Of a stretch of 773 nt of DNA, positions 1-773 are shown piece after piece. The stretch comes from Escherichia coli (GTDB lineage: Bacteria; Pseudomonadota; Gammaproteobacteria; Enterobacterales; Enterobacteriaceae). A program made the position numbers and the translations under genes. Positions within the stretch are counted from its first letter, which is position 1; every line of letters starts with the position of its first letter. The notes under the pieces were generated by a model, which worked only from the letters and a program-made list of their open reading frames with translations, searched no databases and was not told the DNA's origin. The DNA is taken from NCBI RefSeq assembly GCF_003334335.1, contig NZ_QOWQ01000151.1. One strand, given 5' to 3'.

Positions 1-773
1 GCCAGCGGCAGGCCGCGATGGTCGCAGTGGTACAGGTGGATTTTTCGCGCCGGCGTGTACACCGGGTCCATCTGGTTTTGCATCTGCTCCACGGTCAGGC
101 CGCACGATGCCAGCCAGCGGCGGCTTTCCTCACTCACCCGGTCAGCCAGGATTTCACTTTCCAGCCGGTCGAGCATCTGCACCAGCACCGGCGGGAACAC
201 CACACTGCCACCGTCTTCGCCGCCGGACTGCTGAAGGGCATCCGCCAGGCTGCGGCGCTGCGTTTTCGCCAGCTCACCGGTGGCGGTTTCAACTCTGATG
301 AGTGGCGTGAAGCTCCCCGGCTGATAAATCGTCTGGATGCGGGTTCTGTCGTTCTGTATTGTGGTCAGCCGGTCGCCGTCCCAGCCGTACCAGGTCACTT
401 GCGGTTTCCGTGACAGCGACATCCAGCCCGTCAGGTCCCGTTCACGCCGCCACACCCGTTTTGCCACCCTGCGGCCCAGCGGGTCGTAAAGATAGCGACT
501 TTCGACCAGCGGCTCTTCATATTGTGTCCGCGTGTAGTGCACCAGCCGGTGCTGACTGTCGTAATGGTACCGGTGAGTCCGCTCATCATCCGTGCGGATA
601 ACCCCTTCCGGGATGAGGTCGGTTTTCTCTGTCAGCCTGCCGTGACGGTCATACCGGTAAAGATAGTGCGCGTCACGGGCGATACGGTTATCCGGCCACA
701 TGCTGAGGGTGCTGTCCGGGTGCAGCTCCGGGTCGGGCAGGCGGTTACCTGCCGGGTCTGTGGCATACGGGAT
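1..773 (-). CDS. rhs: Rhs-family core protein (YD-repeat polymorphic toxin shell), internal fragment, partial at both ends
   Basis: Seen in sequence: the minus-strand frame with codons starting at 773 is open for 257 codons to position 3, with no stop. The translation carries repeated YD-repeat motifs ([47 protein letters not shown]) and ends in [15 protein letters not shown]. Established knowledge: I recognise this from memory as the C-terminal part of the conserved core of E. coli-type Rhs proteins (RhsA/B/C/D family); no database search was run. The paralogue or strain cannot be assigned from this fragment, so the symbol is given at family level only. GC of about 63% matches the known compositional signature of Rhs cores. 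Confidence 0.9.
3..41 (-). other. Start of RHS repeat-associated core domain ([14 protein letters not shown]), truncated by the window edge
   Basis: Translated residues 245-257 resemble the conserved Y-x-x-D-H-L/R-G motif that opens the RHS repeat-associated core domain just upstream of the DPxGL boundary in Rhs and YD-repeat toxins. The domain continues past position 1. Confidence 0.65.
351..398 (-). other. YD-repeat motif (protein level), [16 protein letters not shown]
   Basis: Translated residues 126-141: [10 protein letters not shown], a YD-repeat variant with Trp in the aromatic positions. Confidence 0.6.
459..494 (-). other. YD-repeat motif (protein level), [12 protein letters not shown]
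   Basis: Translated residues 94-105: Y-L-Y-D-x-x-G-R-R, a close match to the YD-repeat consensus. Confidence 0.75.
528..575 (-). other. YD-repeat motif (protein level), [16 protein letters not shown]
   Basis: Translated residues 67-82 contain a Y-x-Y-D...R-L core typical of YD repeats. This copy is degenerate, with Gly replaced by His. Confidence 0.6.
624..659 (-). other. YD-repeat motif (protein level), [12 protein letters not shown]
   Basis: Translated residues 39-50 of the minus-strand frame match the YD-repeat consensus (aromatic-x-Y-D-x-x-G-R-L). Confidence 0.75.

Follow-up and report, generated by a model that had tools for sequence, protein, structure and literature searches.

The question raised by this locus is what to make of a segment of an Escherichia coli Rhs core that is free of YD repeats and lies between the last of these repeats and the RHS-associated core domain. 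An earlier note, made from the sequence alone, had suggested that this segment could be a helical insertion or linker in the shell, of a kind that tends to vary more than other positions of Rhs paralogues. The stretch of DNA analyzed here (773 nucleotides, hereafter the window) contains a single long open reading frame, the reverse complement of positions 3-773, which comprises 257 codons, is free of stops and is open at both ends. Depending on the E. coli strain, the genes to which the window DNA is 100% identical are annotated rhsA, rhsB or rhsC; because all three match at 100%, the window is not assignable to one paralogue. Of 5,426 complete E. coli genomes, 3,886 contain this sequence, and the median copy number is five per genome. 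The following features are used throughout, all on the minus strand, together with the numbering of K-12 RhsA (L001:3307-7440, 1377 aa), which is 99.9% identical to the window over 773 nt.

Positions 3-773, minus strand: internal fragment of the rhs core open reading frame, RhsA residues 899-1155 (translation and 100% identity to annotated genes).
Positions 468-494, minus strand: YLYDPLGRR, the final canonical YD repeat ahead of the insert, RhsA 992-1000 (sequence; aligned to the YD repeats of Tse5 and of the S. bongori Rhs).
Positions 42-293, minus strand: repeat-free block, RhsA 1059-1142, 84 aa, 9.2 kDa, pI 4.7 (translation; alignments to PDB entries break here).
Positions 3-41, minus strand: start of the Pfam RHS domain PF03527, truncated at the window end (PF03527 match).

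The host gene is an archetypal, fully annotated and long-known E. coli Rhs core of the rhsA/B/C type. K-12 RhsA matches the NCBIfam model NF041261 "RHS element core protein" with 2647 bits over residues 1-1247 (the RHS_core cut-off is 2000 bits), and Pfam RHS PF03527 over residues 1143-1179 (E = 2e-14). Its YD repeats are recognized by TIGR01643 (E = 5e-41, five stretches) and also by PF05593. TIGR03696 matches residues 1170-1247, a self-cleavage motif DPxGx18DPxG is present (DPIG, 18 residues, DPLG), and the C-terminus is an Ntox34 toxin; these last three elements all lie beyond the window, inside which only the start of PF03527 falls. Compared with the E. coli RhsA, RhsB and RhsC proteins covered by NF041261, the window shows no difference and is the archetype itself, with the block included in the span of the model (1-1247). 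Within these E. coli cores, the insert carries no annotation of its own, as residues 1059-1142 are covered by no Pfam family. The signal of the window is purely protein-coding. An Rfam scan gave one match, below threshold (19.9 bits, for a gathering score of 70), no direct repeats and no promoter-like or terminator-like sites were found in the window, and its two inverted repeats are weak (71-83% complementary).

The YD-type motifs of the window are YRYD, YHYD and YLYD, and neither YD nor any repeat-type Y-x pair occurs within the block (positions 42-293), as had been noticed earlier. The block also lies where it had been placed, PF03527 starting at RhsA 1143, directly after it. The peptide had been correctly identified (VETATG...TPARK) and corresponds to residues 161-244 of the translated fragment; the limits given for it, residues 160-244 and positions 42-296, ran one codon too far upstream. 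Similarly, the stretch QQSGGEDGG is found at positions 207-233 and not at about 210-236. To evaluate the composition of the block, all 84-residue windows of RhsA 46-1247 were used as the baseline. Aromatic residues (Y/W/F/H) are at their minimum in the block, with 3.6% for a mean of 13.4% (1.5th percentile), and the helix-forming residues A/E/L/Q/M/K reach 42.9% for a mean of 30.4%, in the top 1% of windows. The composition is thus unlike the rest of the core, as proposed, but not in every respect that was proposed. Of the enrichment in E, R, L, A and Q, only the part concerning A/E/Q held (26% vs 18%, top 3%), whereas arginine is less frequent than in the flanks (8.3% vs 13.9%) and leucine is equal to them. 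The description of a charged segment had to be dropped, since D/E/K/R account for 26.2% of the block and for 26.3% of the core on average; the block is acidic and hydrophilic, with a net charge of -4 and a GRAVY of -0.44. It is therefore repeat-poor and compositionally distinct, though not distinctively charged.

Comparison with solved structures indicates where in the shell the block is inserted. When RhsA is aligned to the solved Rhs shells, every one of the alignments is interrupted at residues 1058-1063 and picks up again at residues 1139-1149. The two sides of the break are held by conserved anchors, PGxFxPLxRxE (PGSFTPLxRxE in E. coli) on one side and xxHxDHxGxP on the other, both of which align to Tse5. 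The length found between them varies widely among Rhs cores, according to sequence alignment:

S. bongori Rhs (8qjb, 8qjc, 8qjd): 2 residues at the insert site.
P. protegens RhsA (7q97): 5 residues.
Advenella Rhs (8qja): 13 residues.
Tse5: about 34 residues.
Tse15: about 40 residues.
E. coli Rhs: 79-81 residues.
Positions 42-284, minus strand: net insertion relative to the S. bongori Rhs, RhsA 1062-1142 (alignment).

Judged from these alignments, the block is a real insertion when set against any of the solved Rhs shells, and it occupies the tip of one beta-hairpin. The PAAR-linked Rhs core of S. bongori (8qjb, 8qjc, 8qjd) has only a short turn at the same hairpin, two residues long in the alignment, the turn reading Lys-Gly-Gln; the loop 1312-1315 of that protein is the same site and was singled out by its authors as length-variable among Rhs cores (bioRxiv 10.1101/2024.02.26.582050). 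The C-terminal plug of Tse5 (1092-1168) aligns to RhsA residues 1170-1247 approximately, which leaves just one hairpin between the insert and the plug and protease domain.

We then turned to structure prediction with two AlphaFold2 runs, the first on RhsA 46-1245 with a 30-sequence alignment, and the second on an excerpt, RhsA 1044-1163 (120 residues), with 28 sequences. The shell model has a mean pLDDT of 81.9 and a pTM of 0.75, and superposes with a TM-score of 0.84 on Tse5 and of 0.83-0.85 on P. protegens RhsA and the Advenella Rhs. As a predicted model, RhsA would therefore have the closed beta-cocoon fold. The excerpt model (pLDDT 87.7) reproduces the five helices of the shell model on a stem of two strands, and AFDB models of E. 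coli Rhs proteins, RhsB among them, superpose on it with a TM-score of 0.94 and 1.1 Å. Over helices 3-5, the pLDDT is 83-94 across both runs (83-87 in the shell run); in the shell model, with its 30-sequence alignment, helix 2 and the Gly/acidic loop reach only 66-75. The predicted elements are as follows, from upstream to downstream in the protein:

Positions 282-305, minus strand: upstream strand of the hairpin stem, PLIRVETA, RhsA 1055-1062, part of the PGSFTPLxRxE anchor (AF2 strand at model residues 1010-1017; excerpt strand 12-18).
Positions 267-281, minus strand: predicted helix 1, TGELA, RhsA 1063-1067 (AF2 helix 1018-1022; excerpt helix 20-24).
Positions 225-248, minus strand: predicted helix 2, LADALQQS, RhsA 1074-1081 (AF2 helix 1029-1036; excerpt helix 31-38).
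Positions 207-221, minus strand: GEDGG, five-residue Gly/acidic indel in the loop between helices 2 and 3 (alignment; pLDDT 66-69).
Positions 147-191, minus strand: predicted helix 3, the longest, RhsA 1093-1107 (AF2 helix 1048-1062; excerpt helix 50-64, pLDDT 93-94).
Positions 105-131, minus strand: predicted helix 4, EESRRWLAS, RhsA 1113-1121 (AF2 helix 1068-1076; excerpt helix 70-78).
Positions 72-92, minus strand: predicted helix 5, VEQMQNQ, RhsA 1126-1132, ending at 1131 in the shell model (AF2 helix 1081-1086; excerpt helix 83-89).
Positions 24-47, minus strand: downstream strand of the hairpin stem, RKIHLYHC, RhsA 1141-1148 (AF2 strand 1096-1103; excerpt strand 98-105).

The prediction for the insert is thus a helical fold standing on a hairpin stem of its own. 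Several of these elements carry conserved residues. In the upstream anchor, P, G, F, P, L, R and E are invariant in the alignment. Helix 2 has the conserved motif SLAExLQQ, in which Leu is invariant, and helix 3 the motif LxxLExEL, with an invariant Glu. Helix 4 has the motif S..S..WL, with W and L nearly invariant, and helix 5 is preceded by a conserved CGLT turn. The conservation of helix 3 follows a 100-degree periodicity with 3.5 times the mean power, which provides evidence for an amphipathic helix from the sequences themselves, independently of AlphaFold. The GEDGG loop has the lowest pLDDT of the block (66-69) and is a low-confidence loop. Elsewhere in the predicted shell, short N-terminal helices are the only helical part besides the insert region.

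To assess how widely the insert is shared, we examined its homologues. The block is present in every enteric homologue examined, with either 81 or 86 residues between the anchors, in the genera Escherichia, Shigella, Salmonella, Citrobacter, Hafnia, Kluyvera, Lelliottia and Pseudocitrobacter. The difference between the two lengths is the five-residue Gly/acidic stretch, missing from the 81-residue inserts (Salmonella and Citrobacter type), the placement of the gap being ambiguous by about two residues. An insert of 86 residues is also carried by a fragment of the S. Typhimurium SPI-6 Rhs. More distant relatives (43-55% identical), including proteins named from Serratia silvae and Citrobacter farmeri, carry alignable inserts of 77-80 residues, whereas the inserts that a few metagenomic relatives have at this hairpin, 96-109 residues long, are apparently unrelated. 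The positions conserved in the insert are mainly hydrophobic or structural (SLAExLQQ, LxxLExEL, S..S..WL..CGLT). The block is at the same time the 84-residue core window with the highest entropy among 30 full-length or partial cores, only 0.18% of windows being higher. Between RhsA and RhsD-type proteins, identity is 63-68% in the block and 78-88% in the shell. For the K-12 pair, the values are:

Insert, RhsA vs RhsD: identity 68%, dN/dS 0.27.
Flanking 100 residues, RhsA vs RhsD: identity 81-88%, dN/dS 0.07-0.09.
Shell overall, RhsA vs RhsD: identity 78%, dN/dS 0.17.

From its dN/dS and lower identity, the insert evolves faster than the shell, yet it is clearly constrained. It is under purifying selection; positive selection was considered for the RhsA/RhsD pair and rejected at a dN/dS of 0.27. 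The blocks of RhsA, RhsB and RhsC are 95-100% identical, and their inserts 98-100%, despite unrelated C-terminal toxins; the insert is therefore not adapted to the cargo and does not co-vary with the toxin domain.

These results bear on most of what the earlier note had put forward, and confirm it in part. The evidence supports its main proposal, an insertion that is helical and comparatively variable. Among Rhs cores, the block is indeed the most variable window, with RhsA and RhsD types 63-68% identical; its indel lies in the Gly/acidic stretch, with the length otherwise fixed in enteric cores and RhsA, RhsB and RhsC 95-100% identical. The block is not invariant across cores, and both the shell and the excerpt model predict it as helical and not as ordinary beta-strand shell repeats. 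Of the two terms offered, a helical insertion agrees with the alignment breaks and the five AlphaFold2 helices, whereas a mere linker does not agree with a pLDDT of 83-94, conserved hydrophobic positions and a dN/dS of 0.27. An effect on shell closure or processing, which the note also suggested, would have to be reconciled with published shells that lack the insert and yet close and self-cleave normally.

We also looked for relatives of the insert outside the family. A Pfam scan with the insert alignment (15 members) returned nothing significant, the best E-value being 0.2 apart from weak matches to GrpE. These GrpE matches (6.6e-5, in 2 of the 15 members) were taken as coiled-coil-like noise. 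The insert profile gave a best E-value of 0.2 against PDB sequences (DNMT1 and DYRK1A, by chance) and did not retrieve Tse5. A Foldseek search of the PDB with the excerpt model gave a best E-value of 1.7, and the AFDB50 matches of this model are Rhs proteins only. Taken alone, the insert thus has no match among Pfam families, PDB sequences or solved folds. What is already known is the gene, the presence of the insert within family models and AFDB predictions, and the length variability of the site. The helical insert of the E. coli type is not described in the published accounts of Rhs1, P. protegens RhsA, the S. bongori and Advenella Rhs, Tse15 and Serratia Rhs2, and a conserved five-helix domain at this hairpin in the enteric Rhs clade seems to be undescribed.

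Two solved shells do have sizeable inserts at this site. Residues 1031-1062 of Tse5 (P. aeruginosa PA2684) form Helical Region 2, a helical surface protrusion resolved by cryo-EM (PDB 8cp6; PMC10684867); they correspond to index 984-1015 of 8cp6_B (+47) and were aligned to RhsA 1063-1139. Helical Region 2 and the E. coli insert occupy the same hairpin tip in the last turn of the cocoon, and both are helical (by prediction for E. coli), but the region has about 34 residues in Tse5 and the insert about 80 in E. coli. A likeness between PPELLQL and PPVLVQML had pointed to homology of the contents as well, and it was rejected by shuffled controls. In 500 shuffles of the inner 34 residues of the Tse5 segment, the insert HMM gave a mean of 32.7 bits, compared with 31.9 bits for the real Tse5, and 338 of the shuffles scored equal or better. 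Since the HMM does no better on Tse5 than on its shuffles, the equivalence between the two proteins is positional only. In Tse15 of A. baumannii (8uxt, 8uy4), residues 1256-1267 are a solvent-exposed exterior loop (PMC11461821), and lie in the middle of an insert (1243-1282, about 40 residues) at the same site as in E. coli. The Tse15 insert is disordered and half as long, whereas that of E. coli is predicted to be a folded helical domain.

We propose that the block is probably a lineage-specific, five-helix accessory mini-domain, about 80 residues long and carried on the exterior of the cocoon by a hairpin of its last turn. This mini-domain would sit on the tip of a single hairpin of the Rhs beta-cocoon, with one further hairpin between it and the C-terminal plug and aspartyl-protease domain downstream, and would project from the outer surface of the shell like the shorter inserts of Tse5 and Tse15. 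It could act as an accessory surface module near the C-terminal pole, either as a buttress or as a docking or contact surface. It would not belong to the machinery of encapsulation and self-cleavage, because shells with two to five residues at this site close and cleave; published Rhs shells with such a short turn still deliver toxins too. We favor an exterior location because the region at the same site is a surface protrusion in Tse5 and an exterior loop in Tse15. This positional analogy is joined by an argument of volume. With volumes of about 11,000 cubic Å for the 9.2-kDa insert and about 17,500 cubic Å for a toxin of 130 residues, the two would together fill some 90% of the published Rhs cavity (about 32,000 cubic Å), which favors the outside. 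On both grounds, the insert may well be exterior.

The helices could conversely line the cavity near the C-terminal plug, where they would contact or restrain the unfolded toxin or the cleaved termini. Such a position would suit amphipathic helices and a site close to the plug and the protease domain, and amphipathic helices are known inside Rhs shells, the anchor helix of P. protegens RhsA being an example. We nevertheless consider this arrangement unlikely, as both solved shells with inserts here (Tse5 and Tse15) place them outside, the insert does not co-vary with the toxin that it would touch, the shared volume would leave the cavity nearly full, and an evolution faster than that of the shell is typical of surface decoration.

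The positional match with Tse5 suggests another alternative, in which the insert would be an enlarged counterpart of Helical Region 2, that is, a dynamic surface element contacting the target-cell membrane and aiding toxin delivery. Both regions sit on the same hairpin and are helical, and Region 2 of Tse5 rearranges to touch the membrane in a molecular dynamics simulation of 1 microsecond (PMC10684867). The proposal made for Tse5 comes from simulation and is tied to a pore-forming toxin, whereas the toxins of E. coli-type Rhs are enzymatic, such as Ntox34 in RhsA. The two inserts share no sequence similarity, and that of E. coli is acidic (pI 4.7, net charge -4) and hydrophilic (GRAVY -0.44). 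A membrane-contacting role by analogy with Tse5 thus appears quite unlikely. An unstructured, low-constraint spacer or linker, tolerated because hairpin tips accept insertions, would account for the most variable window of the core, for the indel and low pLDDT of the Gly/acidic loop and for the lack of a known-domain match, but is highly improbable, being contradicted by helices 3-5 predicted at pLDDT 83-94 in two independent runs, a length fixed at 81 or 86 residues across genera, invariant or nearly invariant L, E, W, L and C-G-L positions, and a dN/dS of 0.27, far below neutrality.

The exterior mini-domain, if real, has consequences for what has been written on Rhs surfaces. The authors of the Tse5 study reported that the protrusion has no counterpart in Rhs1 and P. 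protegens RhsA, and that homologues whose toxins are enzymatic lack Helical Regions 1 and 2 (PMC10684867). Their Foldseek list includes E. coli RhsA-D, which may or may not be contained in the aligned subset (PMC10684867). E. coli Rhs proteins, with their enzymatic toxins, have a larger predicted helical insert at the site of Region 2, so that, if the insert is exterior, the link between helical protrusions and pore-forming cargo would need to be revisited. The surfaces of T6SS Rhs proteins were likewise called smooth and free of protrusions by the authors of the S. bongori study (bioRxiv 10.1101/2024.02.26.582050). This description would fail for the E. coli type, and the generalization with it for the archetypal E. 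coli proteins, should the insert be on the outside. In the solved T6SS Rhs shells the domain is missing or short, whereas the most abundant Rhs family of E. coli, Shigella and Salmonella has it.

A bolder version of the exterior mini-domain can be envisaged, although we regard it as doubtful. The insert would be an exterior module peculiar to Rhs effectors of the Enterobacterales type, an enlarged and independently evolved counterpart of Region 2, required for a step of delivery such as docking to a partner of the secretion apparatus or of the target cell, or triggering the opening of the C-terminal pole. How Rhs cocoons open and release their toxins is treated as an unresolved question in published discussion. 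If this were the case, removal of the insert would spare cocoon folding and self-cleavage and would abolish intoxication, and helical protrusions at this site would not be a specialty of pore-forming toxins, contrary to the Tse5 paper. For now, the insert is an unannotated structural detail of a known gene, and only evidence of a function would raise it above a modest footnote. A second protrusion of Tse5 (873-914) lies at a place where E. coli Rhs has only about five residues. Being well delimited and probably self-folding, the E. coli insert would be a plausible permissive site for a tag.

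The study of the Pseudomonas aeruginosa Rhs toxin Tse5 states in section 10 of its main text that homologues carrying enzymatic toxins lack Helical Regions 1 and 2 (PMC10684867). The Foldseek list in its Supplementary Data 1 nevertheless contains E. coli K-12 RhsA-D, which may or may not be among the 13 sequences that the paper aligns (PMC10684867). At the position of Region 2, these four proteins carry an insert of 81 residues that is predicted to be helical. The second large protrusion of Tse5, Predicted Helical Region 1 (residues 873-914), is in part unmodelled (PMC10684867), and its E. 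coli equivalent was located by alignment.

Window 705-719 (RhsA 917-921): site equivalent to Tse5 Region 1, within a coil at window 666-767 (RhsA 901-934)

At this site Tse5 has about 33 additional residues and E. coli about 5, and E. coli therefore lacks Region 1. The surrounding RhsA residues 901-934 are predicted by AF2 to form a long irregular coil (pLDDT about 70). Compared with Tse5, the E. coli Rhs proteins thus have Region 1 missing and Region 2 enlarged.

Large inserts at the Region 2 hairpin are also found outside the enteric proteins. Three metagenomic Rhs relatives of the DHLGTP type (P0216, P0233 and P0242) carry 96-109 residues at the same hairpin, charged and rich in Ala, Gln and Glu. 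No alignment was found between these three inserts and the enteric one, which suggests that this site has been expanded repeatedly. Variation was also seen within the insert itself. Two E. coli proteins annotated as partial, P0001 and P0040, carry deletions inside it (21 and 31 residues) that take out its predicted helices 3 and 4 (homologue alignment A1). In P0001, a segment ([10 protein letters not shown]...LYHCDHR) is present again after the YYDP motif. Recombination between copies of rhs may have produced these two proteins, or they may be pseudogenes or artefacts of assembly. In three database variants, P0054, P0069 and P0089, about 25-30 residues over helix 2 and the Gly/acidic loop are out of frame, and the frame is restored ahead of helix 3.

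Equivalent to window about 190-265: out-of-frame stretch in the homologue sequences P0054, P0069 and P0089

Either compensated frameshifts or errors in sequencing may account for these departures.

The insert was also found truncated in a chromosomal rhs remnant of K-12.

L001:8321-8790: first orphan rhs core fragment of K-12, downstream of rhsA and yibA

Core homology in this fragment (94% nucleotide identity) runs from RhsA residue 1087 onward, a position inside the insert and directly past the Gly/acidic loop; the orphan therefore keeps predicted helices 3-5 and lacks helices 1-2. Helix 5 contains Met1129 and Met1133, and many short database proteins begin at one or the other of these residues; such starts probably derive from ORF calling on fragments of this kind. 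The rhsA copy of E. coli UMNF18 that matches the window at 100% (L002:3306-7440) is annotated as a frameshifted pseudogene; the 773-base window sequence itself is intact within it.

Rhs elements typically show a compositional break, with G+C dropping from the core to the toxin tip. The window has 62.7% G+C, the core of K-12 rhsA (L001:3307-7440) 61.6% and its C-terminal toxin-encoding tip 40.2%. The G+C of the insert is 65%, and it is therefore not compositionally foreign to the core.

The strand opposite to rhs also contains an open reading frame.

Window 18-413, + strand: 131-codon ORF with an ATG start, antisense to rhs

No promoter-like sites were found in the 773 nt of the window, and antisense ORFs are expected in coding DNA at 63% G+C.
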